A stretch of DNA of 64,000 nucleotides, from IMG/VR virus record IMGVR_UViG_3300022555_000042; one strand, given 5' to 3'. The stretch is from an uncultured virus (IMG/VR IMGVR_UViG_3300022555_000042) (Duplodnaviria > Heunggongvirae > Uroviricota > Caudoviricetes). A model generated the notes under the pieces. It worked only from the letters and a program-made list of their open reading frames with translations. It was not told the origin of the DNA and did no database searches. Shown here piece after piece: positions 12,258 to 62,424 of the stretch; position 1 is the stretch's first letter; every line of letters starts with the position of its first letter. The position numbers were made by a program, and so were the translations under genes.

Positions 12258-12545
12258 ATGAGTAAGAACAGATATGTTGTTGTCTATGCCAAAGTGACGG
12301 ACAACAAGGAGAGCGGGGCACTAATGAGCGGTGTTTATTTCGGAGGCGTAGCTTCAACTGTCGAGGAAGCTGACAAAATCGCTGAACGCTGTGTGGCCGA
12401 GACCCAGGGCGGCCTGGTTATTCCCAAGGTTGCCAAGATGCATACCGATGACTTGCTCGAAGTAATTAAGGTTATTGAGGGTCGTTTCGACGAGCTGGCC
12501 AAGCAGATGTATGAGAATGAGCGGATCGCCAGCCGGCGGCGCTAA
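12258..12545 (+). CDS. hypothetical protein
   Basis: ORF following dut. Confidence 0.6.
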   Translation: MSKNRYVVVYAKVTDNKESGALMSGVYFGGVASTVEEADKIAERCVAETQGGLVIPKVAKMHTDDLLEVIKVIEGRFDELAKQMYENERIASRRR

Positions 12546-29055: not shown

Positions 29056-29112
29056 ATTTAACATAATTGTCACCATAATGTTTGATGTATTTGATTTCCA
29101 ATGGGAGGCCAA

Positions 29113-30198
29113 ATGCATCAAAACTATGAAGCAGCCATTCAAGCTCACGTTGACGGCAAGACGATCGATTGGATTCTGTCAACATACTCTATTCCCAAGA
29201 CCACTTTTTATAGATGGTTGTCGAAGCTTGAAGTGCCCAAGCGGCTAGGTGGTCGTGCGTTTTCCGCAACCGAAATTGATCAAATTAATGAGCTATACAG
29301 CTCGGGCGTGTCTATAACTGAGCTGATTAAAAAATTCAGCTCGTCATTCAATATGATAAAGTCAGTTATTAAAGAGGTGAGGACTAAGCCTGAGGCGATC
29401 AGTCTTGGCTTGCGAGTTTACACAGACGCGCAGGTCGATGAAGCGGTTGCTATGTATGGGTTCGGGCTTACATCGAGTGCTGTTGGTCAAGCGCTTGGTA
29501 TGTCTGAAGCCGCTGTGCTACGGTTTCTTAAGTTGCGCGGCGTAAAAGCGAGGGAAATTGCATATGAGTGTAATGAGCATTATTTTGATGAATTAGATAC
29601 TGAGCAAAAGCTGTATTGGTTTGGATTTTTGGCTGCCGATGGGAGACTAAGTTTAAGAAATTATGCCAGCAGTTTTCTAGAATGTAATTTGGGAATGAAA
29701 GACAAGCCACATCTAGAATTATTATCTAAGCACATGGGCTACACTGGGCCAATTCGGGATAAAACTGTGGTTCATTCTAAAACTGGTAAAATATATACCC
29801 ATGCTAATTTTAAAATTACTCGAATTAATATTGTCGATGCTCTTAGGAGGTGGGGGCTAAAAGACATTAAAGCTGGTGATGTGTGGCCACTTACAGTGTT
29901 TGATGATGAACAGATTAGACTTATTTTGCGCGGATATTTTGACGGCGATGGATCAATCTATAAGGACAACCGCCGCGCTTTGAAGTGGCATATCTGTGGC
30001 CCACACAAAGAGCCACTCGAATATCTTATGTCGCGATGTTCTGTGGTTGGTCGATTTAATGCAATTGGCAAATCAATGAAATACCGTGTGGGGTATAGTG
30101 GGAACAAAATTGTTCCACGAATTTGCGAGTGGCTATATCGTGATGCCACGGTGTGGTTGCCAAGGAAGCGTGCGGTGATAGAGGCTCATCTGAAGTAG
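29113..30198 (+). CDS. LAGLIDADG homing endonuclease with HTH repeats
   Basis: YWFGFLAADG and LRGYFDGDGSI; GGAGG RBS. Confidence 0.9.
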   Translation: MHQNYEAAIQAHVDGKTIDWILSTYSIPKTTFYRWLSKLEVPKRLGGRAFSATEIDQINELYSSGVSITELIKKFSSSFNMIKSVIKEVRTKPEAISLGLRVYTDAQVDEAVAMYGFGLTSSAVGQALGMSEAAVLRFLKLRGVKAREIAYECNEHYFDELDTEQKLYWFGFLAADGRLSLRNYASSFLECNLGMKDKPHLELLSKHMGYTGPIRDKTVVHSKTGKIYTHANFKITRINIVDALRRWGLKDIKAGDVWPLTVFDDEQIRLILRGYFDGDGSIYKDNRRALKWHICGPHKEPLEYLMSRCSVVGRFNAIGKSMKYRVGYSGNKIVPRICEWLYRDATVWLPRKRAVIEAHLK

Positions 30199-30218
30199 TA
30201 TTCTTGTAAATATAACAT

Positions 30219-31661
30219 ATGGTCAAGAACCCCGTAGATGGCCAAGTTATAACTGACAGTAGCGGAACAATGCTTCGCTACCATGCCGATATCAATGCCT
30301 GGATCAGCACCGGGGCTGTACTCAATACTCAGCTAGTCACCATCAAAGATGCTGGCTTAGTTTTCCCAGAGCTAGCTGCCCAGTTGGACAAGCTTTCTAA
30401 TGTCCCCACCTTCAAGATCTTTCAAAATCCTGATGCATATTATTACATCATCATCGGAGCGCGGGGATTCTATAATACCTCAGTGGAGGGGAATAATGTT
30501 CGGGTAGAATTAAACCGGGGGACGATTACCCGAACGTTATTCATGAAGGCCTGTCAGGGCGAAAGGGGGCCAAAGGGGTATGACGGCGTAGCTGGGGCGA
30601 ACGGGCTGCCTGGGCCTAATGAAATTTCTTTCGCGGTGGTTGTCGAGGGGGCCAAGCTGAGTTTTGTTGCTCCGGTTGCTGCGCCTCTCGATACTCAGGT
30701 TTCTATCCGGCTATATGTAAATCAATCTTTATCTCTTGAGATTTGGTATGATCCATTCGATCAGGGCACTAATGTATGGGAATTAGTCTCTAATATTAGT
30801 GGGATTGGGATTATGTCGGCTGAATTTGGGTACGCCGATGGGGACTTGTCGGTATCGCTGACTGGCGATAAAGAATGGGGCAGTGGGTGGTCGGCTAAGG
30901 CTCGTCAAAGGGGGCCGGTGGGATGGGTTGGGGTAGATGGGGAGTCTTTCTTAGAAGTAACCGAATCGGTGCTTTACAGCATTACTTCTTCGCAGTTCAC
31001 GATGAGCCTACGGAAGGCCAGTGACGATACTTTGTATATGGCCACGCAGACGCTCGGTGAGATGCCAGCGTTTCATTTGAGGCCCGTGAGCATCCAGAAT
31101 TTCAATTCCACATTTTTGTCCACTGATACCGTGGCTTCGGTGGAGCCATCTGTGGACAATAGCAAGCTATTGAGGAAGTGGCTGCTTCCAGCTTCTGATG
31201 ACAAGGCTGACCCTTTGGTTTTGCCGATATGGACGCCAGATCCGTCTTGCCTGCGGCAAGGTTTCAACGGTGTCGGGCTGGACACTCCTACTGATGAATT
31301 TGATTGGCATAGTCAGTTTACGGGTGACCAAGCTCTGCCGGTCAACATTGAATCCCCCGGAATGATTCCGAAGAGGTGTTGCCAGGAAGATTTTTATTTC
31401 TGCCCGAATCTTAATGAGGGTGTGTGTGATCCGAACCTGACGCCTGCGGCGGCTCCTGTCACCACTTTCTATTTCAGCCAGGACACTCCAGCCGCCACGT
31501 GGGAGATCATTCACAATGCTGGGAAGAGGCCGACTGATGTGGTGGCGCATGATATGGATGGAAATATAATTATTGGAGACATTAGTAATCCTGATGTCAA
31601 TACGACGATTATTACGTTCTCGTCGGCTATTGCCGGCAGGGCTGTCCTCAGTTTTCTGTAG
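30219..31661 (+). CDS. putative virion protein with collagen segment and C-terminal beta module
   Basis: NPVDGQV N-terminus, GERGPKGYDG, CCQEDFYFCPN, WEIIHNAG module. Confidence 0.7.
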   Translation: MVKNPVDGQVITDSSGTMLRYHADINAWISTGAVLNTQLVTIKDAGLVFPELAAQLDKLSNVPTFKIFQNPDAYYYIIIGARGFYNTSVEGNNVRVELNRGTITRTLFMKACQGERGPKGYDGVAGANGLPGPNEISFAVVVEGAKLSFVAPVAAPLDTQVSIRLYVNQSLSLEIWYDPFDQGTNVWELVSNISGIGIMSAEFGYADGDLSVSLTGDKEWGSGWSAKARQRGPVGWVGVDGESFLEVTESVLYSITSSQFTMSLRKASDDTLYMATQTLGEMPAFHLRPVSIQNFNSTFLSTDTVASVEPSVDNSKLLRKWLLPASDDKADPLVLPIWTPDPSCLRQGFNGVGLDTPTDEFDWHSQFTGDQALPVNIESPGMIPKRCCQEDFYFCPNLNEGVCDPNLTPAAAPVTTFYFSQDTPAATWEIIHNAGKRPTDVVAHDMDGNIIIGDISNPDVNTTIITFSSAIAGRAVLSFL

Positions 31662-31716
31662 ATATAGTACGGCTGAGGTCCACCACAAAGATAATTAAGA
31701 TCGATATAGGTGAACT

Positions 31717-32133
31717 ATGCCAGATGATATTATTGAGAGCAGCACTAATGCCTTGTTGTACAAGATCAGGAATCTTGTCTACTTGGACACTATTTTCTCG
31801 TTGGAGGAGGATTTTAATAGGATTGGGCTGACTGTGCAGCTATCGAGTGGCAATAGGGCCATACTGTGTAAGATTGTGGAGGGGCGCGCCGCTGCTTCTT
31901 CGGTTATGGATGATTATATGTTTCTTGGCTCATTTGCGGGCACAGAGGCCAAGCAGGAAGTGCCGCCCAAGCTGATTGCTACTTTATCTGACTTTGTGAT
32001 GAATAAGGCGGGGGCTTCGGCCAAGGTTACCAGTGCTCCTCGTAGGTGGCAACATGGTATTAAAACATATGGTCAGATCATCCGGATTCTTGATGAAGAT
32101 GTGCAAGTAATTGCACAGAATATTAATGGCTAG
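31717..32133 (+). CDS. hypothetical protein
   Basis: AGGTG RBS. Confidence 0.65.
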   Translation: MPDDIIESSTNALLYKIRNLVYLDTIFSLEEDFNRIGLTVQLSSGNRAILCKIVEGRAAASSVMDDYMFLGSFAGTEAKQEVPPKLIATLSDFVMNKAGASAKVTSAPRRWQHGIKTYGQIIRILDEDVQVIAQNING

Positions 32134-32620
32134 TTATAAAATTCCAGTGCCGTATGGCCGCGGTTTTAGAGGTGGTGATCCACCATCACCTCAGCAAATC
32201 GCAAAAGCCACTCGGGTGGCCGATCTTATTTTACACTCTTTAATTGGCAGGGTTGCAGCTAACGATAATTCTTCCTATGAATTTGATGTTCGGTACGATG
32301 AGAAGAGTGGGAAACTAGACTTAAATATTCCAGATGAATACTTAAATATTATTAGCCAGGTGGACAAGGGGGAGCGGCTCAATAGCTACATAGCGTGGTT
32401 AATTTCCGGCACTGGGGCAACGACTGAATTTAAGTATTCTCAGCCTGTGGATTCGGCAACGTGGACTATTGTTCATGACTTGGGTAGGAATCCAGCGACT
32501 GTTTCCACACACGACCAATTTGATAATACGATATTTGGTGATGTTTCTTATCCGGATATCAATACGGTGGTGATAACGTATTCGTCTGCTATCGCTGGGC
32601 ACGCCTTGCTGATTTTTTGA
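32126..32620 (+). CDS. putative virion protein sharing a C-terminal module with 30219
   Basis: ATWTIVHDLGRNP..GDVSYPDINTVVITYSSAIAG. Confidence 0.7.
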   Translation: MASYKIPVPYGRGFRGGDPPSPQQIAKATRVADLILHSLIGRVAANDNSSYEFDVRYDEKSGKLDLNIPDEYLNIISQVDKGERLNSYIAWLISGTGATTEFKYSQPVDSATWTIVHDLGRNPATVSTHDQFDNTIFGDVSYPDINTVVITYSSAIAGHALLIF

Positions 32621-32685
32621 TGTATGTGGTGGTGGAGGGGGCTGCTTGTAAATATAAGATAGTTTGGTTGTAGCTTGGTAGCGTA

Positions 32686-33936
32686 ATGTATAAATTTTTA
32701 ACCACCGTTGATCTTACTGGCAATCAGATTCTGAATCTGCGCCTGGAGAACCGGGCCGCTCCGCCTAGCACGCCTCAGGCTGGGTGGATTTATTTTGATA
32801 CTGCTGCCCATAAGTGCTACTATTATGATGGAACAAACTGGGTTGACATGAGCGGGGGCGGGGGGAGTGGGGCGTGTGGTTTAGCTGGTCCGTGCGGGTT
32901 GCAAGGCCCCTCTGGTCCGTCAGGCCCGTCCGGTGCAACTGGTCCATGCGGGGCTGGTCCTTGTGGTTTAGTTGGTCCTTGTGGGGCGTTGGGTCCATGT
33001 GGCCCATGCGGCGCTTTGGGTCCTTGCGGAGCATTAGGGCCATGTGGCCCTGTTGGATCTACTGGTCCTTGCGGTGTCGCCGGAGCGTGTGGTGTTCCGG
33101 GGGCGTGTGGAATTCCGGGCGCATGTGGGATTCCTGGCGCATGTGGTGCATTAGGTCCTTGCGGCGCTCTGGGGCCTTGTGGCCCAATTGGGTCAACTGG
33201 CCCTTGCGGTGCTTTAGGGCCATGCGGGGCTTTAGGATCATGTGGTCCTATTGGCTCGTGCGGCTTGGTCGGCCCATGCGGGGCATTAGGACCTTGTGGT
33301 CCCATTGGCTCTACTGGTCCGTGTGGCGCGATTGGTCCATGTGGAGCAGTAGGCCCGTGCGGTGTGGCCGGGGCGTGTGGGGTTCCAGGAGCATGTGGCG
33401 CATTAGGTCCCTGTGGACCCATTGGGTCTACTGGTCCTTGCGGAGCGGTTGGGCCTTGCGGCGTAGACGGTGCGTGCGGTTTAGTTGGCCCGTGTGGTGC
33501 TTTAGGTCCCTGCGGAGCATTAGGCTCAACTGGTCCATGTGGAGCGCTAGGACCCTGTGGCCCAATTGGTCCTTGTGGGGCATTAGGACCTTGCGGCCCA
33601 ATCGGATCAACTGGACCCTGTGGCCCCGTTGGTTCTACAGGCTCATGTGGGGCAATTGGCTCTACCGGTCCGTGTGGGGCTGTCGGGCCTTGTGGGGCAC
33701 TAGGAGCGGTAGGACCCTGTGGGGCACTGGGATCCTGTGGAGCATTAGGACCCTGTGGCCCATGCGGGGCAATTGGTTCTACTGGCCCATGCGGTGCTTT
33801 AGGACCATGCGGACCATGCGGAGCATTGGGGGCATGCGGCCCCCTGGGGCCTTGTGGGGCTGTTGGGCCATGTGGGGCGGCAGGTGGGGGGGCAGCTGGG
33901 TCCACAGCACGATTGTTTATGCTAATGGGCGCATAG
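32686..33936 (+). CDS. cysteine-rich collagen-like fibre protein
   Basis: About 110 Gly-X-Y triplets, about 50 being GPC/GAC/GSC; N-terminal GWIYFDT..YYYDGTNW. Confidence 0.85.
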   Translation: MYKFLTTVDLTGNQILNLRLENRAAPPSTPQAGWIYFDTAAHKCYYYDGTNWVDMSGGGGSGACGLAGPCGLQGPSGPSGPSGATGPCGAGPCGLVGPCGALGPCGPCGALGPCGALGPCGPVGSTGPCGVAGACGVPGACGIPGACGIPGACGALGPCGALGPCGPIGSTGPCGALGPCGALGSCGPIGSCGLVGPCGALGPCGPIGSTGPCGAIGPCGAVGPCGVAGACGVPGACGALGPCGPIGSTGPCGAVGPCGVDGACGLVGPCGALGPCGALGSTGPCGALGPCGPIGPCGALGPCGPIGSTGPCGPVGSTGSCGAIGSTGPCGAVGPCGALGAVGPCGALGSCGALGPCGPCGAIGSTGPCGALGPCGPCGALGACGPLGPCGAVGPCGAAGGGAAGSTARLFMLMGA

Positions 33937-33945
33937 GAGTATAAA

Positions 33946-34275
33946 ATGGCTGACACTATCCAAGTTTTAAGTCAGACTAATCCTCAAGCTGGCGCTTTGA
34001 CTAATGCCTATACAGTGCCTGGGGCTACTAGTACTGTTATATCAACCATAACAGTATGTAACTCTGGTGGATCCACAGCCACCTTTAATATATCAATAGC
34101 TGTTGGGGGAGCAGCCGACACTATTGCCCAATATATTTACTATGGAGTTAGTATTCCAGCTCACAACACTTTTTCAGCGACTATTGGTATAAGCTTGGCT
34201 ACTACTGATATTGTTAGGGTTTATGCCTCAACCTCTATGCTGTCGTTTAATTTCTTTGGAGTACAAGTAACCTAA
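33946..34275 (+). CDS. small beta-rich virion-type protein
   Basis: YTVPGATSTVISTITVCN..FNFFG; AGGAG RBS. Confidence 0.7.
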   Translation: MADTIQVLSQTNPQAGALTNAYTVPGATSTVISTITVCNSGGSTATFNISIAVGGAADTIAQYIYYGVSIPAHNTFSATIGISLATTDIVRVYASTSMLSFNFFGVQVT

Positions 34276-35300
34276 TGGCTCAAGGATTAATAACAAATAC
34301 CACGCGAATCGTTGACCCAACTGGGAATATTGCTCCCACAAGCAATAATGGGTTAATGGTTGATTCTCCATCCATTAAGAATCTTCTGAGTGAGCGGTTG
34401 TCTTTGTTGCGGGATATAGAAGATTATCTTGAGATGCTATCGCAGACTGGGGTTAGGGGGGCAGCGGCTTCGTTGCCTATATCTGTAGCTAATGATCAAA
34501 TAGTAGCGACGAGCATACCAGATGTAACGGTGAGTGGACAAATAAACTCTACCGGCACTTTACATCCTACTACTTTTATTCCCGGTACTTTTGTTGATAT
34601 AGAGTTGAGTGGGCACTCAGTAGTAGCCGGGCAAGCTATGGGTTTGCCAACCGTGTCCTCATACTTACTACCATACGCATCATTGGATGGCATAAATTTT
34701 GTCCCGACGCCCGCTATTAATTCTGCTGGCGGCCTTGCGGCGTCGAAGTATGGATTTTATGTAGCAAATTATCCATGGTTATTTTTGGTCCCATGTTCTG
34801 GGTATAAAAGGGTGCGAATATTAAACACATCGGGAGGGATGCCCGGCGGTGTGCAAGTTACTCTCCGTGCCTCCGCAGCCATGCCAATGAATTATCTGTC
34901 TTTGCTTCTCTCCAGTGCTGCCAATACCTCTCTAACTGGTGTTCAATATGCGTACTCATATGTCGGCTCGGCCGCATCTACTCTAGTCCCTCGTTTTTAT
35001 CAAGGGCTACAACGGGCCGTGATTTATGCCGCCGCAGATCAACTTTTTAGTTTATATATCAATAATTTCAATGATTTTTCTATTTATCTTCTATTTTATA
35101 ACACAACCACTATTGCCAATATCTTAAGTGCCACACCAAATATGGTGATCTCGGTCCCACCGGGACTCACCACTATTAATTCTGGTAATTTTAATATGTA
35201 TAATTTATCATCTGGGTTGTGTTTGGCAGCTTCTCAATCTCCTTATTCTTATGTCCCATTGCAACTTGGACCAGATGTGACTACTTTTACAGGAATTTGA
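34275..35300 (+). CDS. array A paralogue 1 of 5, putative fibre/decoration subunit
   Basis: YLEMLSQTG..AASLPISVANDQIVATSIPDV, PCSGYK, PMNYLS, LGPDVT. Confidence 0.75.
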   Translation: MAQGLITNTTRIVDPTGNIAPTSNNGLMVDSPSIKNLLSERLSLLRDIEDYLEMLSQTGVRGAAASLPISVANDQIVATSIPDVTVSGQINSTGTLHPTTFIPGTFVDIELSGHSVVAGQAMGLPTVSSYLLPYASLDGINFVPTPAINSAGGLAASKYGFYVANYPWLFLVPCSGYKRVRILNTSGGMPGGVQVTLRASAAMPMNYLSLLLSSAANTSLTGVQYAYSYVGSAASTLVPRFYQGLQRAVIYAAADQLFSLYINNFNDFSIYLLFYNTTTIANILSATPNMVISVPPGLTTINSGNFNMYNLSSGLCLAASQSPYSYVPLQLGPDVTTFTGI

Positions 35301-36299
35301 ATGCAAGGTTTGTCTGAAAATCTTACGCAAACTATTGATCCTAATGGGAACATCGCCCAGATTGATCCAGTCGATGGATTGGCGGTGGATTCCTCGCAAG
35401 CCAAGATGCTGTTGTGCAGGCAAATCCAGTCTCTTAAGAAGACTCGTGATTATTTAGAGATACTATCGCAAACTGGGGCCAGGAGTGCCGCTGCATCGTT
35501 GCCAGTAGCAGTAGCGAATGACCAAATAGTTGCTACAAGCATACCGGATGTAACGGTGAGTGGGATTGTACCTACAAATGGCGGTATATTAAGTATTGAC
35601 TTAAACGGACATTCTGTGGTTGCCGTGTATATGTATACAGCGGATAATGGACTTGGTTTTTATCCACAGGCATCAATTGATGGTGTAAATTATGTGACGG
35701 TAGTTGGTATCACTTTAACATCTTGGTATAACTTTCCAAATCTTGCCGGTCTTACTGCCTCCGCATTTAACACCGCCGGAGCGGGCGGAGGGGGGCCTGT
35801 GCTCATTCCATGTGCCGGGTATAAGTCAGTGCGGATAGTTACAAATCGTGGAGTTGTTGGCAGAACTACTATTATTCTTCGTGCTTCTGTTGCTTTCCCA
35901 ATGAATTATCTCTCCTTATTATTTAACAATCACGCTAATGCGCAGTTTGGTGTAGCTCAATCAATATCTAAAGCCAACACTCTTGTCCCACGCTTCTACA
36001 AAGGCTTACAAAAAGTAGTCAATAATGCAGCGGCTACAGTTTTGTCTAACATGCTGGTTAATAATCCTAATGACTTTACGATTTATCTGTTGCTATACAA
36101 CACTAATACCAACGCCCTTTTGATGAATGCGGCAATTTATTATGCTATTCCGGTTGCCCCCGGTTTTTCAACAATTCCAGCCAGCAACTTTGGTTTAGGG
36201 GCATTTACTACTGGGCTATGTATAGCAGCATCGCAGTCTGCTACTGTTTATTCTCCCCTGCAATTGGGTCCGGATGTAACGATTTTCACGAGCACATAA
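35301..36299 (+). CDS. array A paralogue 2 of 5
   Basis: Same conserved blocks. Confidence 0.75.
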   Translation: MQGLSENLTQTIDPNGNIAQIDPVDGLAVDSSQAKMLLCRQIQSLKKTRDYLEILSQTGARSAAASLPVAVANDQIVATSIPDVTVSGIVPTNGGILSIDLNGHSVVAVYMYTADNGLGFYPQASIDGVNYVTVVGITLTSWYNFPNLAGLTASAFNTAGAGGGGPVLIPCAGYKSVRIVTNRGVVGRTTIILRASVAFPMNYLSLLFNNHANAQFGVAQSISKANTLVPRFYKGLQKVVNNAAATVLSNMLVNNPNDFTIYLLLYNTNTNALLMNAAIYYAIPVAPGFSTIPASNFGLGAFTTGLCIAASQSATVYSPLQLGPDVTIFTST

Positions 36300-36300
36300 T

Positions 36301-37344
36301 ATGGCACAAGGCTTACTTACAACTTCAACGCAGATTGCTGACCAAGATGGAAAAGTGGTTCCAGTTGATCCCACTAATGGTTTGAGCGTGGATTCTCCAT
36401 CCATTAAGGAGTTACTGGATCAATCTTCTGACTCTATTCAAAATATTAGTAATTACTTAGAGATATTAAGTCAGACTGGAACCAAAAATGCCGCAGCATC
36501 CTTGCCAGTGGCGGTAGCTAATGACCAAGTAGTGGCTACTTCAATACCGGATGTGGTAGTAAGCGGGCAGATTGTGAGAGCAAATACTGGCGGTCTCGCC
36601 TCGCTTCCGCCCACGCCCGGCTCTTTCATTGATATTCAGCTAAATGGGCACTCAACAGTAACAGTTCAGGCAATAAGCCAGCCTAATAATTCATATACCT
36701 TAATGGTGTTTGTATCATTAGATGGTACAAATTTTGTGAATTTTGTATCATTAGGTGGTACAAATTTTGTGAATATTGCAGCGCCTGATATGAATATGGG
36801 CAATTTAACTGGTGGTTCTATCCTAAAAGGTGGATACGCTGCTGGCAATTATATTTCTATTGTTCCATGTGCTGGATATAAAGTAGTTCGATTGGTGTGC
36901 TCTTATCTTTCTAGTAGTTTTGCGAATGTTACTCTCAGTGCCTCCTCCGCCATGCCGATGAATTATCTCTCTTTACTCCTTTCTCTCCAAGCTAACACTT
37001 CTGTTACTATGTCCCAATCGACTACGCCAGTTGATTTGGTGCCCAGATTTATACCAAATCTATCTACAAAATTCCTTGCGCTCTATAATTTCTGTTTTGG
37101 ATTAATCATTAACAACCCAAATGATTTTACTATTTATTTGCTCTTTTTCAATGCGAACTCGGTTAGTCCCAATACTCCGATCTACTTTGTTTTGTCTATT
37201 CCTCCAGGCTTCTCTACAATACCCATAGGTAATTTTTCTATAGGAAATTATACAACTGGGTTATGTGTTGCTGCATCGTCGTCTCCTATAAGTTATATCA
37301 AACTTCCTATTGGTCCAGATGTTACAATATTTTCTAGTTCATAA
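36301..37344 (+). CDS. array A paralogue 3 of 5
   Basis: Same blocks plus an internal 33-nt duplication. Confidence 0.75.
   Translation: MAQGLLTTSTQIADQDGKVVPVDPTNGLSVDSPSIKELLDQSSDSIQNISNYLEILSQTGTKNAAASLPVAVANDQVVATSIPDVVVSGQIVRANTGGLASLPPTPGSFIDIQLNGHSTVTVQAISQPNNSYTLMVFVSLDGTNFVNFVSLGGTNFVNIAAPDMNMGNLTGGSILKGGYAAGNYISIVPCAGYKVVRLVCSYLSSSFANVTLSASSAMPMNYLSLLLSLQANTSVTMSQSTTPVDLVPRFIPNLSTKFLALYNFCFGLIINNPNDFTIYLLFFNANSVSPNTPIYFVLSIPPGFSTIPIGNFSIGNYTTGLCVAASSSPISYIKLPIGPDVTIFSSS
36709..36774 (+). repeat. 33-nt in-frame tandem duplication
   Basis: FVSLDGTNFVN / FVSLGGTNFVN, one nucleotide mismatch. Confidence 0.9.
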
Positions 37345-37352
37345 GGATTAAA

Positions 37353-38357
37353 ATGGCTCATGGGCTTACAACTGCAATTACACAAATTACTGATGATAGG
37401 AGTAATGTAGCTATTATCGATCCAGTAAATGGGCTTGAAGTAGACGATCCGTCTCTGGTTGCTACTTTACGAGAACAATCCAAAGTCTTTAAAAACATTA
37501 GGGATTATTTAGAAATATTAAGTCAAACGGGGGTTAGAGGTTCTGCTGCATCATTACCAGTAGCAATAGCTAATGACCAAGTGGTGGCTACAAGCATACC
37601 AGATGTAGTGGTAAGTGGTACGATAAATAAAATCGCTGTCAACGCACTCTTCGCCCTTCCGGGCTCCTATATCGACATAGACTTAAATGGACACTCGATA
37701 GTTACGGTCCAAGCCACCGGAACCATTCAGAGTATTGCTTATTATATTTATGCGTCATTAGATGGGGTAAATTTTGTAAATTGTAGCGGTGGGTCAATCT
37801 ATAAAAACTATACCCAAGGATTCAATCCATATACTGATGGCGCAATCTGTTGGTTTCCGTGTGCCGGATACAAACGATGGAGAATGGTAGCCGTATCTAC
37901 TATTACTGGGCTTGCTACCTTTACTCTCCGAGCATCAGTTGCTCCCCCAATGAATTATCTTTCTTCGCTTCTAACCTATACGAATACTGTTTTTGGCACC
38001 GTTCAACCAGTATTAGCTGCCGCTGACAGTTATAGGCCGACGTTAACACCATATTATTACAAAAACTTACAACGAAAAGTAGTTAGTGGGGCTAACACTC
38101 TATTTGGCTTTACTGCTAACAATCCAAATGATTCATTAGTGTATTTATTATTTTATAATCTATCAACCTTACCTACGCTGCTAAATGGAACTCCAACCCT
38201 AGTTATTCCAATACCACCAGGGCAATCTTCTTATCCAGTGAGCAATTTTGGCTTGGGAACTTTTACGACAGGGATATGCTTGGCGGCATCAATGACTTCA
38301 TCTAATTATGCTCCAGCACCATTAGGCCCAGATGTAACAATATATATTAGAGTGTAA
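37353..38357 (+). CDS. array A paralogue 4 of 5
   Basis: Same conserved blocks. Confidence 0.75.
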   Translation: MAHGLTTAITQITDDRSNVAIIDPVNGLEVDDPSLVATLREQSKVFKNIRDYLEILSQTGVRGSAASLPVAIANDQVVATSIPDVVVSGTINKIAVNALFALPGSYIDIDLNGHSIVTVQATGTIQSIAYYIYASLDGVNFVNCSGGSIYKNYTQGFNPYTDGAICWFPCAGYKRWRMVAVSTITGLATFTLRASVAPPMNYLSSLLTYTNTVFGTVQPVLAAADSYRPTLTPYYYKNLQRKVVSGANTLFGFTANNPNDSLVYLLFYNLSTLPTLLNGTPTLVIPIPPGQSSYPVSNFGLGTFTTGICLAASMTSSNYAPAPLGPDVTIYIRV

Positions 38358-38358
38358 T

Positions 38359-39393
38359 GTGGCACAAAACTTAGCAAATCAAATTACACAGATAAATGAT
38401 CTGAATGGGAATATTGCGCAAATTGACCCAGTGAGTGGTCTGGCTGTAAACTCCCCGTCCGTCAACGAGATACTTGAAGAGCAATTGGAGACGATGCAGG
38501 ATATTGAAAATTATTTGGAAGCACTATCGCAAACTGGGATGGGGAGTTCTGCTGCATCGTTGCCGGTAACCATAGCAAATGACCAAGTGGTAGCTACAAG
38601 CATGCCAGATGTGGTAGTGAGCGGACGGATAACAGTAACCGCCCCAAGCTACATTGGCTCTGGTGTAAGTCAATCATTCATTAAAGGATCATATGTTGAT
38701 ATATCCCTAAATGGGCATTCCATAGTTGCTGCCGGAATTGATAGTTATGGTGTTGCTTCGACAGGCTACATTTATGCGGCGTATTCGCTAGACGGCATAT
38801 ATTATTCAGTAGTCCCAAAACTTGTAATATTATCAAATTCATACGCAATGCCATCTGGCAACGCACAGGGCACTTCAGCCTCAGCGCCTGATATATTTCT
38901 TATTCCATGTAGTGGATATAAAATAGTTCGGCTTATTGCTTGGACCGGAACGGGTGGGGCGTCTATTACTCTTCGGGCATCAACAGCATTTCCTATGAAT
39001 TACCTCTCTGTGCTTACTTCATTATACACTAATAATTCAGTTACTATTGTCCAATCTATCACCAATGCCGCAACTTTAATCCCTCGGTTTTATCCTGCTC
39101 TTCAACGTTGTCTAATCACAGCCGCCGCCAATAGTAGCATGAGCATAATTGCCAATAACCCTAATGATATCCTAATATACTTACTATTCTATAATATAGC
39201 CAGTTATTCTGGGATGTTTAGCGGCACTGTTTTATATACCATTGCTTTACCACCTGGTCCCTACGTTGTCCCCGCAGGGAATTTTAGTTTAGGATCTTTT
39301 ACTACTGGATTGTGTATAGCTGCCTCTACCTCACCTTATTCATATGCCCCACCAGCATTAGGTCCAGACGTAACAATTTTTGCAGGTAGTTAA
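38359..39393 (+). CDS. array A paralogue 5 of 5
   Basis: Same conserved blocks; GTG start. Confidence 0.75.
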   Translation: MAQNLANQITQINDLNGNIAQIDPVSGLAVNSPSVNEILEEQLETMQDIENYLEALSQTGMGSSAASLPVTIANDQVVATSMPDVVVSGRITVTAPSYIGSGVSQSFIKGSYVDISLNGHSIVAAGIDSYGVASTGYIYAAYSLDGIYYSVVPKLVILSNSYAMPSGNAQGTSASAPDIFLIPCSGYKIVRLIAWTGTGGASITLRASTAFPMNYLSVLTSLYTNNSVTIVQSITNAATLIPRFYPALQRCLITAAANSSMSIIANNPNDILIYLLFYNIASYSGMFSGTVLYTIALPPGPYVVPAGNFSLGSFTTGLCIAASTSPYSYAPPALGPDVTIFAGS

Positions 39394-39461
39394 AGGAAAA
39401 CATAAAAGAGAATAGATGCCAAAACTGTACATAAAACTAGCTAGTTGTCTAGGAGAAAAAT

Positions 39462-40112
39462 ATGATAGCTGAAATCCAAGTTGGTCCACAAATTCTCGCT
39501 AATGGTGTTCGCCCAGCCGCCCGTGGAGATCGTAGCGCAGCCCTGGCAGTAACTGATGCCCATGCTCGTTTCCAGGAGGCTGTGCTTAATGGTAACGTTT
39601 TTGGGCTATGCCTAACCGCAGTAACTACTAACCCACAAGCGGGTAATTACTTGCCCACCTCTGGTGCCACCGCTGCCTCCACTAATTTTACAATCTGGAA
39701 TCCAATTGGCTCAGGCGTAAATTTAGTTCTCTGGCAATTTAATTTGGGGTATGTTTCTGGTACTCCGGCGGCTGGTCCTGTATGGCACTGCTTATATAAT
39801 GCTCAAGCTGTCTCAGCAGCAGTTACTGGCACAGCTAGAAATTTGATGGGACAGCTTTCTGGACCCCACGCAGCATATGTTGCTAGTGCTGGTGGGGTTA
39901 CAATGACCGGCCAACAAGCCCCATACCAAGTCTGCATGGCTAATTTTTCAGGTACAGCCATTGCCCAAGCTGTAGCTTATCCAGTGAATACTACTGACTT
40001 GCTTGAAGGTAAAATTATTGTTCCGCAAGGCATGGGCTGGGTTCCACTACTGGCTGGCGCAGGAACATATGTTGTTGGCTTTTCAGTTGTCTGGGAAGAA
40101 ATTCCGAGCTAG
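39462..40112 (+). CDS. array B paralogue 1 of 4
   Basis: HARFQEAV..GNVF, IWNPIGSG, CMANF, GKIIVPQGMGW, VWEEIP. Confidence 0.75.
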   Translation: MIAEIQVGPQILANGVRPAARGDRSAALAVTDAHARFQEAVLNGNVFGLCLTAVTTNPQAGNYLPTSGATAASTNFTIWNPIGSGVNLVLWQFNLGYVSGTPAAGPVWHCLYNAQAVSAAVTGTARNLMGQLSGPHAAYVASAGGVTMTGQQAPYQVCMANFSGTAIAQAVAYPVNTTDLLEGKIIVPQGMGWVPLLAGAGTYVVGFSVVWEEIPS

Positions 40113-40135
40113 TCCCAGACTAATTAGGAGCAAAT

Positions 40136-40795
40136 ATGATAGTCGAAACTGAAGTTGGAGCAAAAATCCTGACTGCTGGGTCTAAGCCTCCGATTCGAGT
40201 TGATCGCTCGGGGGCGATGGTGATCTCAGATGCTCGCACTCGCTTTCAAGAGGCGGTCTTGCAGGGTAACTGTTTCGCCCTCTGTCAAGCTGCGGCCACA
40301 AATAATACTGTAGTAGCAGGCAATGCTTATGGTGCGGGTGCTGCCGCTTCTACAAACTTCTGTCTCTGGAATCCTATTGGCTCAGGGAAAATAGCAGTTT
40401 TGTGGCAATTCAATCTATGTGTAGTAACCTGCACTACGCTTACGTCGTATCCGGTTTTCCATGCCCTTTTTAACGCTACATCTGTAACGGCTACTTCTTC
40501 CGGTGGTATTCGCAACCTCAATGGAGCTTCGGGTGGGTCGCAGATGTTTTGCCTAAACAGCACTGCTGGAACAGCTATAACTGGCGGTTTGGCTCCTTAC
40601 CCGGTTTGTATGGCTAATTTTACACAAACGGTCGCCCCAGGAACCGCTGCGACTTGGCCTAACCCTACTACTGATTTAATTGAGGGAAGAATTATTATTC
40701 CACAAGGCATAGGCTGGGTTCCTCTGATTTATGGTACGGCCAGTTCTGCACTTGTGGTTAGTTATTCGGTGGTATGGGAAGAAATACCCGCTTAA
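40136..40795 (+). CDS. array B paralogue 2 of 4
   Basis: Same conserved blocks. Confidence 0.75.
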   Translation: MIVETEVGAKILTAGSKPPIRVDRSGAMVISDARTRFQEAVLQGNCFALCQAAATNNTVVAGNAYGAGAAASTNFCLWNPIGSGKIAVLWQFNLCVVTCTTLTSYPVFHALFNATSVTATSSGGIRNLNGASGGSQMFCLNSTAGTAITGGLAPYPVCMANFTQTVAPGTAATWPNPTTDLIEGRIIIPQGIGWVPLIYGTASSALVVSYSVVWEEIPA

Positions 40796-40804
40796 GGAGA
40801 ATGT

Positions 40805-41470
40805 ATGATCGCCCCTCTTGAAACTCAAGTTGGCATACAAAATCTTGCGAATATGGCTAGACCCACTATTCGTTCGGATCGCACTGGTGCCGTTGTTACA
40901 GTTGATACCCATGCTCGCTTTCAAGAGGCCGTCATACAGGGCAATGTCTATGGGTTTACTGGCGTAGCTACAGCCACCGCTGCCGCCCAAATAGTTGGCG
41001 GTGCCGCTGGTGGCCATCTTAATTTTGCTATATGGAACCCAGTTGGTTCTGGGAAGAACCTGGTATTATGGGTTTTTGGAATGGGCATTATCAGCGGAAC
41101 CCCAACCGCTGGCCCTGCGTGGCATGGGATGATGAACACTTCCAACGTTTCGGCAGTATCCTCAGTGGCAGCCGGGCTTGGCCCTTATAACCTAAATGGT
41201 TCGTTCAGCAAATCAGTGGCCAACGTATGGTTTGTGGCAGCCGATACCACTAATTTTACTGGCGGTGGAGCACCCTATCAGGTGTGTATGGCTAACTTCT
41301 CCATGGCCAACACCAACACTAACACTTTAGCCAACCCCAACTACACCAATGATTTCATTGATGGGAAAATTATAATTCCCCAAGGCATGGGTTGGCTACC
41401 ACTGCGGGCTGGAACTGGAAGCAGCGACAACACCGCTTATTCTATTGTTTGGGAAGAAATAGCGGCTTAA
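40805..41470 (+). CDS. array B paralogue 3 of 4
   Basis: Same conserved blocks. Confidence 0.75.
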   Translation: MIAPLETQVGIQNLANMARPTIRSDRTGAVVTVDTHARFQEAVIQGNVYGFTGVATATAAAQIVGGAAGGHLNFAIWNPVGSGKNLVLWVFGMGIISGTPTAGPAWHGMMNTSNVSAVSSVAAGLGPYNLNGSFSKSVANVWFVAADTTNFTGGGAPYQVCMANFSMANTNTNTLANPNYTNDFIDGKIIIPQGMGWLPLRAGTGSSDNTAYSIVWEEIAA

Positions 41471-41484
41471 AATCGGAGAATTGC

Positions 41485-42156
41485 ATGTTAATTGAAACCC
41501 AAGTAGGCCCGTTAAATCTTGCTGCAGGCAGCAATGCCATTCTGCGCAGTGATAGAAGCGCTGCAACCACAGTTGTGGAGGGGCACGCTCGCTTTCAAGA
41601 CGCCGTGTACAACGGTAACGTATTCGGATTTAGCGGGAGTTGCACTACGGCTGGGGCCGGGCAGGTAATGGCTGGAGCCGCCGCCGCCGCCCTTAATTTC
41701 ATTATCTGGAATCCAGTGGGCTCTGGTAAAAACCTCGTACTTTGGCAATTTAATTGTGGTCTTATTAGCGGCGCAGCATCTACTTTACAGATTGGTGCCA
41801 TTTGGCACCAAATGATGAATACAGCTGCGGTATCAATAGCCACAGGCTGGGCTGGCCAGTATGGAGCATATAATATGGGCGGGACGCCAGCTAAGCCAGT
41901 TGCTAATACTTTGTTTAGTGCTGGTGGAACCGCATTCACTGGTGGTACGGCTCCCTTCCCACTTTACATGGCTAATTTTGGAGTAAGCTTGTCATCGGCA
42001 CAAACTGCAGCAGTGACCTTCCCCATCTCGACTGTTGATCTGATTGATGGAAAGATCGTAATACCACAAGGTATGGGATGGTTGCCCACACCTAATGTAA
42101 CAAATGCCACACAGTTGTATGCTTACTCAGTTATTTGGGAAGAAATCCCAGTTTAA
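41485..42156 (+). CDS. array B paralogue 4 of 4
   Basis: Same blocks; start at MLIETQVG with GGAG RBS. Confidence 0.75.
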   Translation: MLIETQVGPLNLAAGSNAILRSDRSAATTVVEGHARFQDAVYNGNVFGFSGSCTTAGAGQVMAGAAAAALNFIIWNPVGSGKNLVLWQFNCGLISGAASTLQIGAIWHQMMNTAAVSIATGWAGQYGAYNMGGTPAKPVANTLFSAGGTAFTGGTAPFPLYMANFGVSLSSAQTAAVTFPISTVDLIDGKIVIPQGMGWLPTPNVTNATQLYAYSVIWEEIPV

Positions 42157-42168
42157 TAGGATCTTGAC

Positions 42169-43323: not shown

Positions 43324-43334
43324 GGATATTTAAT

Positions 43335-43667
43335 ATGACTGACTTTTTGACAACCCCAATCCAAGCATCTAATGCTTTCCAACAGGTAGAAGAAATCCGT
43401 AAAGAGTCTAGGGCAATGTTTGATAGTTTTGCGGTTCAAACCCAAAAAACCTATGACAAAATTTGGAATAATCTCGATCCAACCTGCACCCCAGACAAAA
43501 TGTGGGAGGCAATCGGAACAGCTGGAGTCTCAGCTTTAAAGACTCATATTGCTGCCTGCACCTTTATCGAAACAGTGTGTCCGGGCACATTATCTCCTCG
43601 TTTTCTATCAGCCCAGCAACCAATAACTATTAATGAGGATGGATCGATTAAAATAACGGGCCAATAA
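43335..43667 (+). CDS. hypothetical protein
   Basis: GAGGA RBS. Confidence 0.6.
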   Translation: MTDFLTTPIQASNAFQQVEEIRKESRAMFDSFAVQTQKTYDKIWNNLDPTCTPDKMWEAIGTAGVSALKTHIAACTFIETVCPGTLSPRFLSAQQPITINEDGSIKITGQ

Positions 43668-43694
43668 TCGTTGTGCCGTATGTATTAAAACTGC

Positions 43695-44837
43695 ATGCAA
43701 TTACGATTTCACGTCCTCGGCCTACCCCACACACAGACCAGCAAAGCATATAATGTCTGTGCCTTCACTTCAAATTGTTATTCCTTCTGTAAAATGATGA
43801 TGTCACTTGGCCATGAAGTCATCCATTATGGCGTGGAAGGCTCAAACCCGCCGTGCACTGAAAACGTCCAAGTAATGACCAAGGTGGAGCAGTCGGAATT
43901 CTTTGGCGGGCACGACCATCGCACCCAAGGAGCAATAGTAGAGTGGGATGGCTCCAAACCATACTGGCTGTTTATGAACGGCAAAATCATCGCCGAAATG
44001 GCCAGACGAGTCAAACACAAAGACTTCATTGCCGTTACTACCCCCATCCAAGATACCATTGCTGACACATATCGCGGCATAACAATACCAGTTGAGTATA
44101 CTACAGGGTATACTGGGATAGGTAAAAACCATAAAGTATTCCCATCATATACCCATATGCATTATGTGTATGGCCAATATCGCTGGAATGAAGACGGACG
44201 ATATTATGACTCAGTAATTCCACATTATGTAGATCCAGATGATTTTAGCCTATGCCAAGAGAAGGGCGATTATTATCTATATCTCGGGCGAATCATGGCC
44301 CGCAAAGGCATTCATATCGCATTAACTACCACTGAACATATTGGTGCCAAATTAATTATAGCAGGCCAGGGCGGCAAACTGGTGAACGGTAGACTGCTCG
44401 GAGACCACTTAGACTTAGCCCCTGGAAATTGGGAGTACGTTGGGCCAGCCGATGTTAAGAAACGATCAGAGTTAATGGGGCATGCCAAGGCTGTGTTTGT
44501 TCCGTCAACTTACCTTGAACCATTTGGATTAGTGGCCATAGAAGCTCAAGCGTGTGGCACCCCAGTAATTACTACAGACTGGGGCGCATTTGTGGAAACT
44601 GTAGAACATGGAGTCACTGGGTTTAGATGCAGAACCCTCGATCATTTTGTGTGGGCCGCACAAAACGTCCACACCTTGGATCCCAAAACAATTAGAGAGA
44701 AGACTCTAGCTAAGTATTCAATCGATCGGATTAAGCTAGCATATGATGAATATTTCCACATGCTATATGACCTATGGGGTGATGGTTGGAACGTTGTACA
44801 TGATGATAGAGTACAACTCGATTGGTTGAAGAAATAA
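43695..44837 (+). CDS. glycosyltransferase, GT-B fold (GT4-like)
   Basis: YLGRIMARKG, EPFGLVAIEAQACGTPVITTDWGAFVETVEHGVTG. Confidence 0.92.
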   Translation: MQLRFHVLGLPHTQTSKAYNVCAFTSNCYSFCKMMMSLGHEVIHYGVEGSNPPCTENVQVMTKVEQSEFFGGHDHRTQGAIVEWDGSKPYWLFMNGKIIAEMARRVKHKDFIAVTTPIQDTIADTYRGITIPVEYTTGYTGIGKNHKVFPSYTHMHYVYGQYRWNEDGRYYDSVIPHYVDPDDFSLCQEKGDYYLYLGRIMARKGIHIALTTTEHIGAKLIIAGQGGKLVNGRLLGDHLDLAPGNWEYVGPADVKKRSELMGHAKAVFVPSTYLEPFGLVAIEAQACGTPVITTDWGAFVETVEHGVTGFRCRTLDHFVWAAQNVHTLDPKTIREKTLAKYSIDRIKLAYDEYFHMLYDLWGDGWNVVHDDRVQLDWLKK

Positions 44838-45460
44838 TGCTGCCTAACACTTGGAATGAATTATGGTCGTCATGGTATGCCAATAAATCTGCAATGAATT
44901 GCTATGACTTTCAACGTGAACAAGTTGGCCGCTGCGCTAGGCCGGTCCTTAATGCAGCTTGTGCCTATGACCCAGCCGACCTAGGGGATATGGGTGCTAT
45001 TAATATGGATATTCAGCAAGTTGAACCATGGACCAATAGAGACTTCTCAAAGTGCAAGCAATATATAAATGGAGATGTGCGTAATATTCCATTCCCCAAT
45101 CGGCATTTCGGGGCGGTCGTCCTGGGCGAATTTCTGGAGCATTGTACTGTCGAATCAGCCGCAGCGGCCTTGAGTGAATGCCACCGGGCGTTGCGGGACG
45201 AGGGCGTAGTTATTATTACACTGCCGCTCGATGCCCGTCCCAGAGGTGAGCAGGAAATGTTCCACACCGCCGGCATGCCTATCCCTCCAGATATGTATTG
45301 CGACGACATCACAGCGTATCACAGCATGTATTGGTCCAATACGATGCTTGATACCCTGTTTATCAGGACTGGATTTATAGAGATACTACGGCAGCCACTG
45401 TTGTATTTTCTTACTGCGCCAGTGGGCGGATGGGGTCTGGTTCTCAGAAAGTCTATTTAA
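44837..45460 (+). CDS. class I SAM-dependent methyltransferase-like protein
   Basis: VLNAAC, GDVRNIPFPNRHFGAVVLGEFLEH, ECHRALRDEG. Confidence 0.8.
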   Translation: MLPNTWNELWSSWYANKSAMNCYDFQREQVGRCARPVLNAACAYDPADLGDMGAINMDIQQVEPWTNRDFSKCKQYINGDVRNIPFPNRHFGAVVLGEFLEHCTVESAAAALSECHRALRDEGVVIITLPLDARPRGEQEMFHTAGMPIPPDMYCDDITAYHSMYWSNTMLDTLFIRTGFIEILRQPLLYFLTAPVGGWGLVLRKSI

Positions 45461-48281: not shown

Positions 48282-48326
48282 TTTTATAATCGCTCGCCTT
48301 CTGAGTAAATATAACCAGGAGGCCAT

Positions 48327-51472: not shown

Positions 51473-51506
51473 CTTCAAGCGCGTGAGGTTCGGTCAAAAA
51501 TACCAT

Positions 51507-52295: not shown

Positions 52296-52333
52296 TTTCG
52301 CAATCCTCCACGTAAATATAAGTGGAGGCCAAT

Positions 52334-62422: not shown

Positions 62423-62424
62423 TT

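Follow-up and report, generated by a model that had tools for sequence, protein, structure and literature searches.

Sequence analysis indicated that an uncultured freshwater phage encodes a genuine cysteine-rich, collagen-like fibre, the composition of which was new relative to the literature searched. The DNA analysed, referred to here as the window, is a stretch of 64,000 nucleotides, and the collagen gene within it was divided into the following features.

32686-33936, + strand: Cys-rich collagen ORF of the uncultured freshwater phage, 416 aa
32686..32859, + strand: N-terminal domain of 58 aa, then a Gly-rich linker; putative virion attachment or trimerisation module
32869..32949, + strand: collagen segment 1, 9 Gly-X-Y triplets
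32950..32955, + strand: sole break in the repeat, two residues (Gly-Ala)
32956..33882, + strand: collagen segment 2, 103 unbroken Gly-X-Y triplets, approximately every second one having Cys at Y; PF01391 match, 8e-40
33883..33936, + strand: C-terminal tail of 17 aa, Gly/Ala-rich and then hydrophobic, and the TAG stop

Glycine opens each of the 112 triplets (9 + 103), and the score against the Pfam Collagen family (PF01391) was 134.9 bits, relative to a gathering threshold of 27.2. All 51 Cys residues of the repeat are at Y and none is at X. They occur in GPC (38), GAC (9) and GSC (4) triplets, while the commonest triplets lacking Cys are GAL (18), GST (9), GPI (6) and GAV (5). Cys accounts for 46% of the Y positions and Pro for 45% of the X positions; a single Asp is the only charge in 338 residues, there being no Glu, Lys, Arg or His. 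The whole ORF contains 12.5% Cys, whereas the figure for 13 other window ORFs is 1.0%. Successive Cys residues were spaced by exactly two triplets in 35 of 50 intervals and were adjacent in only 4, as against a mean of 22.7 adjacent pairs after shuffling (0 of 100,000 shuffles as extreme), demonstrating that the alternation is non-random. An earlier note on this DNA, which described about 110 triplets, about 50 Cys residues, one interruption and almost no charge, was accurate in these respects. Its estimate of a fibre of roughly 100 nm with about 150 thiols per trimer was also borne out arithmetically. The chains are predicted to form a homotrimeric triple helix, for which the rise per residue in collagen is 0.286 nm; hence, 112 triplets × 3 × 0.286 nm gives a length of approximately 96 nm, and 51 × 3 gives 153 thiols.

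The collagen gene is real DNA, as it was reproduced by contigs of four other lake metagenome runs (X3 to X6; three studies in all), and the habitat labels of the runs holding the gene were freshwater or lake water. The X3 contig spanned 32846-34047 with no differences, and contigs of X4 to X6 spanned parts of the gene with at most one difference plus one low-depth 1-base insertion. The Cys codons are TGT (30) and TGC (21), with neither TGG nor TGA at any Cys place. DNA tandem repeats within the gene match at only 68-93%, and the 36 GPC units of segment 2 are spelled by 18 distinct DNA versions. This diversity of spelling, together with the non-random alternation, is indicative of selection on the protein, as the earlier note had proposed from the variation in codons. 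No Shine-Dalgarno motif was found at the collagen gene, and 25 of 44 window ORFs likewise lack one; one further feature was located upstream.

32648..32657, + strand: candidate promoter-like motif GTAAATATAA, 28 nt 5′ of the collagen start codon

Four exact copies of this motif were detected in the window, all on the + strand and each directly 5′ of an ORF start (30219, 32686, 48327 and about 52334); with up to one mismatch allowed, there were 9 matches versus 3.9 expected. The motif may function as a promoter.

In order to assess the location of the protein, the N-terminal 58 aa were scanned alone. Matches were obtained to phrog_8309 (1.5e-14) and phrog_38707 (2.1e-10), families with no annotated function, and to phrog_20787 (1e-6), which is annotated as 'virion structural protein'; in each case the N-terminus of the profile was the part matched. 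Matches to two tail-fibre families were weak (about 0.005), and a PDB sequence search with this domain detected nothing significant. PHROG 'tail fiber' matches of the whole protein stem from the collagen repeat and say little. Only 17 residues separate the repeat from the end of the protein, leaving it without a globular C-terminal domain, and the C-terminal receptor-binding or trimerising domain seen in phage tail fibres is absent. Genes neighbouring the collagen gene resemble fibre or receptor-binding parts. The 64-kb window yielded no capsid, portal, tail-tube, tape-measure or baseplate family, so that the interpretation as a virion fibre rests on the N-terminal PHROG matches and on these neighbours, which point to a probable location in the virion. 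The principal neighbours were as follows.

30219..31661, + strand: fibre-like protein, 480 aa, with a short collagen stretch at 30558-30620 and GTAAATATAA upstream
33946..34275, + strand: 109-aa all-beta protein, a separate gene with its own AGGAG ribosome-binding site; phrog_1276, 7.4e-8
34275..39393, + strand: array A1, five paralogues of 332-347 aa, 46-51% identity, each with an N-terminal helix and two beta-sandwich domains
39462..42156, + strand: array A2, four paralogues of 216-254 aa, 50-53% identity
43695..44837, + strand: GT4-family glycosyltransferase; Pfam Glycos_transf_1, 1.2e-21; phrog_3408, 7.4e-78
44822..45460, + strand: class I SAM methyltransferase gene that overlaps the stop of GT4; Methyltransf_11, 2e-9

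The 480-aa protein has a C-terminal domain in common with ORF 32111-32620, with phrog_30556, 21918, 34633 and 10272 matching at both C-termini. The 109-aa protein belongs to a widespread family of 109-aa phage proteins (Atlas: 30 clusters, feature scores of 0.98-0.99, TM 0.98), and a search of IMG/VR detected no relatives. Its ORF shares the reading frame of the collagen gene and is separated from it by the TAG and three codons, but read-through or fusion was rejected because of the AGGAG site and the ATG after the stop. Array A1 had 148 relatives among 1.84 billion representatives, of which 11 were at E ≤ 1e-30, but no Pfam or PDB sequence match. An AF2 model of an A1 paralogue (pLDDT 74) matched XepA/YomS-like beta-sandwiches and uncharacterised phage proteins in Foldseek, and these paralogues are candidate distal or receptor-binding proteins that could be exchanged for one another. 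Array A2 had no match in Pfam, PHROG or the PDB. The earlier note had placed the collagen gene at the head of a module of paralogue arrays and modifying enzymes: the arrays of five and four genes are real and the GT4 and methyltransferase genes lie 10 kb 3′ on the same strand, but the collagen gene is not at the head, being preceded by fibre-like genes from 27253. Among the 67 ORFs scanned there was no thiol-disulfide oxidoreductase and no family resembling a dehydratase or cyclase; lanthipeptide-like thioether rings between GST and GPC triplets were dropped as a candidate for the latter reason. The nearest named TnpB relatives (56-57% identity) were in Candidatus Nanopelagicaceae MAGs, a link too weak for naming the host.

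The interpretation that we favour, and to which we give roughly an even chance, is that the protein is a structural phage fibre whose Y-position thiols act between molecules and become locked as disulfides after lysis. The source phage has a large genome, and its collagen gene would supply a structural fibre whose chains are anchored by the N-terminal module of 58 aa, which probably also sets their register. The 112 triplets would then form the homotrimeric helix, with an almost wholly apolar surface made up of Pro, Ala or Ser at X and of Cys alternating with Leu, Ile, Val or Thr at Y. The thiols would be solvent exposed and arranged in rings of three every ~1.7 nm, a spacing given by collagen helix geometry. 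According to a review (PMC13138384), Cys residues at Y positions lie at too great a distance from each other for disulfide bonding within one triple helix and mostly bond other molecules or get oxidised. As all of the Cys residues here are at Y, with no pairing within their own helix, their role is most likely intermolecular. In the host cytoplasm the thiols would stay reduced, and lysis into oxic lake water would allow disulfides to fasten one fibre to another or to a partner protein, conferring covalent stability on a helix lacking both hydroxyproline and charge pairs. A globular tip is missing from the fibre itself and may be provided by the 109-aa protein or the beta-sandwich paralogues. 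We infer both the redox switch and the fibre partners. Uncontrolled cross-linking between virions could be harmful, an argument against a disulfide role. The candidate roles offered by the earlier note were disulfide bundling, metal binding and S-linked modification.

No orthologue of the Cys collagen was found in a collection of 5.8 billion proteins or in scans of genomes, metagenomes and viral contigs. Among the 120 of 663 matches listed from the protein collection, at least 20% Cys at Y was observed only in P0078 (14/61) and P0103 (10/48), and the N-terminal region alone as query gave no match. The best 80 loci of each of the genome, metagenome and viral contig scans were ordinary collagens, besides the window's own contig; these scans rank by overall collagen similarity rather than constituting a census, and rarity in cellular genomes is not implied. 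Megablast against a phage collection gave no match, and a literature search, with subscription journals and supplementary files outside its scope, found no report of Cys-rich phage or bacterial collagens. The pattern search for Cys collagens and linked genes that the earlier note had advocated did, however, detect genuine alternating-Cys collagens in a few other, AT-rich phage contigs (L037/L016, L020/L041, L064 and L008); the Cys content of L056, P0078 and P0103 is weaker. The composition was undescribed in the literature searched but is not unique to the source phage. Like the window's protein, these collagens have Cys only at Y and mostly in every second triplet (52/114, 34/76, 21/73, 19/63 and 12/35 triplets), occur in phage structural contexts and in most cases are accompanied by a GT4 homologue. 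They differ in being unrelated outside the repeat, with different N-termini, in having bulky or aromatic residues before Cys (GFC, GYC, GWC and GLC, versus GPC, GAC and GSC here) and in the GC content of their contigs (29-36% versus 49%). One of them, of 189 aa, is encoded just 5′ of a capsid gene.

Collagen-like fibres of phages and prophages (PF01391; the EPclPs of E. coli O157, PMC3368898; mycobacteriophage minor tail proteins) resemble the window's protein in having a non-collagen N-terminal module and then a long Gly-X-Y stalk, and they share with it Pro-rich X positions, a lack of hydroxyproline machinery nearby and fibre-like gene surroundings. Unlike the window's protein, with its Cys-rich Y positions, single charge and missing C-terminal globular domain, they are highly charged and prefer Thr, Gln, Lys or Arg at Y. 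The view in the earlier note that Cys is rare in triple helices fits two papers, which describe Thr as predominant at Y in bacterial collagens (PMC8968730) and Cys as absent from the EPclP collagen domains of E. coli prophages (PMC3368898). BclA-type GXT collagens of the Bacillus exosporium have a similar low-charge stalk, one small nucleophilic Y residue repeated and sugar-modifying genes nearby. BclA differs in using Thr rather than Cys, in being a spore protein rather than a phage protein and in its C-terminal C1q-like trimerising head, which the window collagen lacks; a match to BclA in the PDB (1wck) covers the repeat only. In the collagen III cystine knot and the cnidarian minicollagens (named in the reference list of PMC13138384 and the abstract of PMC2289959), disulfides likewise lock or polymerise trimers after export to an oxidising medium, but those Cys residues are in knots or Cys-rich domains at helix ends, whereas those of the window's protein occupy Y positions within the helix over its whole length. 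An assumption in collagen biology has been that triple helices are almost free of Cys, with natural disulfide locks lying at helix ends. A natural helix with this length and Cys content would test the limit of that rule, would show stabilisation in the absence of hydroxyproline, charge pairs or polar hydration and could bring to light a step of virion maturation in which assembly is triggered by redox change. Cys has been added to recombinant bacterial collagens by engineering for cross-linking and thiol chemistry (PMC8968730), and a scaffold from nature that already has its thiols at regular intervals would be a ready-made material.

The alternative that survives best, although we consider it unlikely, is that the GT4 enzyme and the methyltransferase add (methylated) sugars to the collagen stalk, either O-linked to the Thr and Ser of the periodic GST triplets or S-linked to Cys. 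BclA-type GXT collagens are glycosylated, with Thr carrying the modification, and in the S-linked version Cys would take the place of this Thr. GT4 homologues (33-37% identity, ~370 aa) were present in four of five other genuine Cys-collagen records (G002, G003, G004 and G011, but not G005, a 10.9-kb fragment) and in one of 38 control records without a genuine Cys collagen (G008). In G002 and G003, a methyltransferase-GT4 fusion and a second GT4-domain protein are encoded directly 5′ of the Cys collagen, the start of which overlaps the preceding gene. The fusions in the AT-rich phages are of 607 and 628 aa; in the window, GT4 is followed by a separate methyltransferase. Against this, G002/G003 and G004/G011 are two related pairs and hence represent few independent lineages, every record searched had been picked for collagen-like DNA, the window GT4 gene is 10 kb from the collagen gene and the two methyltransferases are barely alike (E 0.007). 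In G008, a GPQ collagen of at least 1685 aa is encoded on one side of the GT4 homologue and a 2OG-Fe(II) oxygenase on the other, indicating that this GT4 family is tied to collagen fibres in general and that the enzyme does not require Cys; Thr and Ser are on hand as conventional acceptors. The S-glycosyltransferases known so far belong to families other than GT4, which weighs against S-linkage, and the window encodes only a generic GT4; S-glycosylated proteins of the glycocin type are characterised by a dedicated S-glycosyltransferase and a Cys-linked sugar. Co-occurrence with GT4 gives only hints of collagen glycosylation, but the link to the GT4/methyltransferase genes would provide a directly testable enzyme-substrate pair.

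The Cys residues could also be a tolerated by-product of inversion of a GPQ, GPH or GPN collagen gene and have no special role, an explanation that we regard as quite improbable. An ordinary GPQ collagen reads GPC from the antisense strand, as do GPH and GPN in one frame, and an inverted gene need only hold its Gly register. Many of the IMG/VR pattern matches were the antisense of ordinary collagens (L043, L059/L011, L108, L066, L072 and L004), a symmetry that calls for caution in automated censuses of unusual collagens, and the window's own antisense frame reads (G/A/E/D)-P-(H/Q/N/K...). The strict two-triplet spacing, the restriction of Cys to Y and the lack of TGG and TGA codons would, however, be unexpected from drift, and the AT-rich phages, whose collagens share the pattern but have quite different residues at X, suggest convergence. 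Furthermore, Cys columns were better conserved than others in the L037/L016 pair (30/39 versus 61/129 other non-Gly columns), subject to an uncertain register of the repeat alignment.

A broader and rather doubtful proposal is that phages evolved a 'thiol collagen', with Cys at Y in every second triplet, more than once; it would be inert in the reducing cytoplasm and would, outside the cell or through a dedicated GT4/methyltransferase pair, turn into either a network of covalently cross-linked fibres or a collagen that is S-glycosylated, the first of its kind. If this were true, thiol collagen would be the sulfur analogue of the Thr-glycosylated GXT collagens.

Binding by the thiol fibre of metal ions or sulfide minerals, of a host-surface electrophile or of reactive oxygen species is very unlikely. 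The large number of exposed thiols (~153), their regular 1.7-nm spacing, as expected from helix geometry, and the freshwater label would be compatible with such a role, but the repeat contains no His, Asp or Glu co-ligands and no supporting gene or motif was found, leaving this as conjecture. In the reactive-oxygen variant, the fibres would serve as an antioxidant coat, sacrificed to protect the virion in sunlit water.

It is barely credible that no protein is made and that repetitive DNA has been read here in an antisense or chance frame. The low complexity of the GGN-CCN DNA does leave several frames open (one of 377 aa on the minus strand, another plus frame of 356 aa), but Gly opens 112/112 triplets in the collagen frame alone. 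The N-terminal domain shows homology to phage proteins in that frame, variation falls at wobble positions with Cys, Leu and Gly retained, and the gene points in the direction of its neighbours and shares the upstream GTAAATATAA motif. An antisense artefact was ruled out by the absence of any Gly-X-Y run in the antisense frames, the use of TGY codons only for Cys and the N-terminal domain's own phage-family matches; together with the co-orientation of the neighbouring genes, these findings settled the coding strand.

The collagen gene of this lake phage encodes a protein in which a non-repetitive domain and a linker are followed by nine Gly-X-Y triplets, a break of two residues (Gly-Ala), 103 further triplets, and a 17-residue tail.

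32686-33936, + strand: collagen gene, ORF of 416 aa
Residues 1-58: N-terminal domain, non-repetitive
Residues 56-61: linker, Gly-rich

Glycine was first in 112 of 112 triplets. The X position held Pro in 50 triplets, Ala in 37, and Ser in 13, while Y held Cys in 51, Leu in 19, and Thr, Val, or Ile in 29; no Cys was present at X, and the whole repeat had one charged residue. Successive Cys residues were two triplets apart in 35 of 50 intervals and adjacent in 4, a degree of order reached by 0 of 100,000 shuffles. The earlier note had described the repeat accurately as to triplets, Cys at Y, single break, and near absence of charge. The 36 GPC units had 18 DNA spellings and the nine GST units had nine, and tandem-repeat matches at the DNA level were 68 to 93%, indicative of diverged units. 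The feature being kept is the protein pattern rather than a DNA repeat.

The window comes from a large phage genome and has PHROG matches typical of phages. It also encodes a dUTPase and the following:

2449-4194: GroEL
1545-2501: sigma-70-like factor
62398-62712: ribosome-modulation-factor-like protein
23300-24280: adenosine deaminase
12542-13462: aldo/keto reductase
10202-11017, 24868-25875, 29101-30198, 51483-52232, 52852-53730, 60815-61609, 62794-63375, 15809-16978: endonuclease and TnpB genes

Mobile endonuclease genes were unusually dense (four LAGLIDADG type [phrog_4645], one GIY-YIG with NUMOD1, and two HNH), with an additional IS605-type TnpB whose nearest named relatives (56 to 57% identity) were in Candidatus Nanopelagicaceae MAGs. 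Bases 30958-45297 matched one end of a 44.9-kb IMG/VR contig exactly, and CheckV put that contig at 18% completeness; hence, the phage genome probably well exceeds 200 kb. The phage collection yielded no close relative. The stretch was present in runs from three studies, labelled freshwater or lake-water metagenome.

Preceding the collagen gene on its strand are, in order, a 600-aa ORF, a LAGLIDADG endonuclease gene, a gene for a 480-aa protein containing a short collagen stretch (30219-31661), a 138-aa ORF, and a 169-aa ORF (32111-32620). The 480-aa and 169-aa products have a common C-terminal domain of ∼65 aa (phrog_30556, 21918, 34633, and 10272), which recurs at the C termini of many uncharacterised phage proteins. 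Directly after the TAG stop of the collagen gene come an AGGAG site and the start codon (ATG) for an all-beta protein of 109 aa, a member of a widespread family of 109-aa phage proteins. Next are five paralogues of ∼340 aa, a family with 148 relatives among 1.84 billion representatives. An AF2 model (pLDDT, 74) has an N-terminal helix and two beta-sandwiches, with the prophage proteins XepA/YomS as best likenesses in the PDB and uncharacterised phage proteins in BFVD. Four paralogues of ∼220 aa and two ORFs then precede a GT4 glycosyltransferase gene and an overlapping class I methyltransferase gene. The paralogue arrays and modifying enzymes named in the earlier note are, therefore, real, but the collagen gene lies inside this block and does not head it. 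No capsid or tail hallmark was detected within the 64-kb window.

No orthologue was found among the best-ranked matches in a 5.8-billion protein set or in genome, metagenome, and viral contigs, scans that rank by general collagen likeness. The best 120 of 663 protein matches were ordinary collagens, with Cys at 21 to 23% of Y in only two (P0078 and P0103), and the best 80 loci from each contig set were likewise ordinary, save the window's own contig. These results show that the composition is uncommon, as judged from best-ranked matches. A pattern scan of IMG/VR returned at least 118 loci; after an antisense filter, at least five loci with a genuine alternating-Cys collagen were present among the matches listed.

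Cys at Y per triplets in IMG/VR loci with alternating-Cys collagens
L037: 52/114
L016: 34/76
L020: 21/73
L041: 19/63
L064: 12/35

These other phages have 29 to 36% GC, different N termini, and bulky residues before Cys (GFC, GYC, GWC, and GLC). The Cys pattern appears to have arisen in unrelated fibre proteins, since only the repeat composition and GT4 are common to them and the window. The collagen gene joins a small group of "thiol collagens" scattered among uncultured phages. Between L037 and L016, Cys was kept in 30 of 39 columns versus 61 of 129 other non-Gly columns, with an uncertain register of the repeat alignment. On a giant-virus contig (L056), Cys was scattered. At another locus (L008, 2563-3129; record G011), the gene for a 189-aa protein that ends in (GLC-GPx)7 lies just 5′ of a Phage_capsid_4 major capsid gene, with a scaffold-like coiled-coil ORF on its other side; the product resembles a head-decoration protein carrying a short whisker of Cys collagen. 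Record G005 (L296; 10,927 bp) opens on the C-terminal end of one Cys-containing collagen ORF and breaks off within a second, perhaps as a circular assembly or one broken at repeats.

With Gly heading every triplet and Pro filling 45% of X positions, the repeat is predicted to form a triple helix. The collagen helix rises 0.286 nm per residue, so the predicted helix would be ∼96 nm long, and the staggering of its three chains would set thiols in rings of three at six-residue intervals, ∼1.7 nm apart. A 2025 review (PMC13138384) states that X and Y side chains are all solvent exposed in the triple helix, that a pair of Cys residues at Y (or a pair at X) is too widely spaced for an intra-helix bond, and that such residues bond to other molecules or become oxidised. 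Disulfide stapling within a single helix is therefore unlikely, as all 51 Cys residues are at Y, and the thiols must work outwards. The rest of the fibre surface is apolar and uncharged, which favours side-by-side association. We infer, with about even confidence, that the fibre would be reduced and soluble inside the cell and would form disulfide links to sister fibres or partner proteins in oxic lake water.

Glycosylation of the stalk by the GT4 and methyltransferase is a plausible alternative, either O-linked to the periodic GST triplets, the conservative version, or S-linked to Cys, the novel one. Homologues of the window GT4 (33 to 37% identity) were present in four of the five further records that carry a genuine Cys collagen and in only one of 38 without, all of these records having been picked for collagen-like DNA. 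Such enzymes precede a Cys collagen in G002 and G003, and in G008 a homologue of the window GT4 follows a GPQ/GIQ collagen.

L292 1-4960 (G002) and L293 11950-16552 (G003): operon of a methyltransferase-GT4 fusion (∼605 aa), a 686-aa protein that ends in a GT4 domain, and an alternating-Cys collagen overlapping the preceding gene at its start
L003 1-5055 and L297 1465-4020 (G008): GPQ/GIQ collagen fibre (≥1685 aa), then a GT4 homologue, a 2OG-Fe(II) oxygenase (PF13640), and a hexapeptide transferase

The enzymes are fused in G002 and G003 and encoded by separate, adjacent genes in the window, which suggests that they act together. The operon of G002 and G003 adjoins a gene for a 1759-aa beta-helix fibre protein. 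However, few independent lineages underlie the co-occurrence, and the single control match, G008, has its homologue between a GPQ collagen and the oxygenase, indicating that the GT4 family is tied to collagen fibres in general and not to Cys in particular. The G008 genes form a possible cluster for hydroxylating and glycosylating a phage collagen.

When GGN-CCN-CAR (Gly-Pro-Gln) is reverse complemented, one frame gives TGY-GGN-CCN; hence, a GPQ collagen mimics a GPC collagen on its antisense strand, and scans for Cys-collagen patterns or ORFs need a check of the opposite strand to avoid numerous false positives. Many pattern-scan matches were of this kind (L043, L059/L011, L108, L066, L072, and L004), with further cases at L302, L342, and L364. 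For the collagen gene, this reading was excluded: antisense frames contained no Gly-X-Y runs, and all 51 Cys codons were TGT or TGC, without the TGG or TGA that a Pro wobble position on the opposite strand would allow. The gene is also co-directional with its neighbours, and the 58 N-terminal residues, scanned alone in the coding frame, matched the N termini of phage profiles (phrog_8309, 1.5e-14; phrog_38707, 2.1e-10; a "virion structural protein" family, 1e-6). An assembly artefact was ruled out by contigs from four other runs that reproduced the sequence, one contig covering 32846-34047 with 0 differences. The gene is real and well reproduced. One low-depth contig (run X4) had an extra G at 33885, in a G-run near the 3′ end; this is probably an error, and the homopolymer could slip there.

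Its sequence places the protein in the collagen-repeat family, and it is predicted to work as other phage collagen-like fibres do. Assignment as a tail fibre was withheld because the defining C-terminal domain is absent and the module context is not decisive. It is not BclA-like, as the C1q-type head of BclA is absent, and, unlike disulfide-locked animal collagens and minicollagens, it has its Cys residues inside the helix. Thr predominates at Y in bacterial collagens (PMC8968730), and the collagen domains of E. coli prophages lack Cys (PMC3368898). In the main text of openly accessible articles, no account of a phage or bacterial collagen rich in Cys was found. The gene product represents a new compositional variant of the phage collagen-like fibre, whose thiol chemistry should be directly testable.

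The collagen gene has no Shine-Dalgarno motif, as is the case for 25 of the 44 window ORFs, and is preceded at 28 nt by GTAAATATAA, which occurs in four exact copies.

30206-30215, 32648-32657, 48305-48314, 52312-52321, + strand: GTAAATATAA, each directly 5′ of a + strand ORF start

Looser copies (CAAATATAAT) precede ORFs 520-1473 and 15809-16978, and the motif is a candidate phage promoter element.
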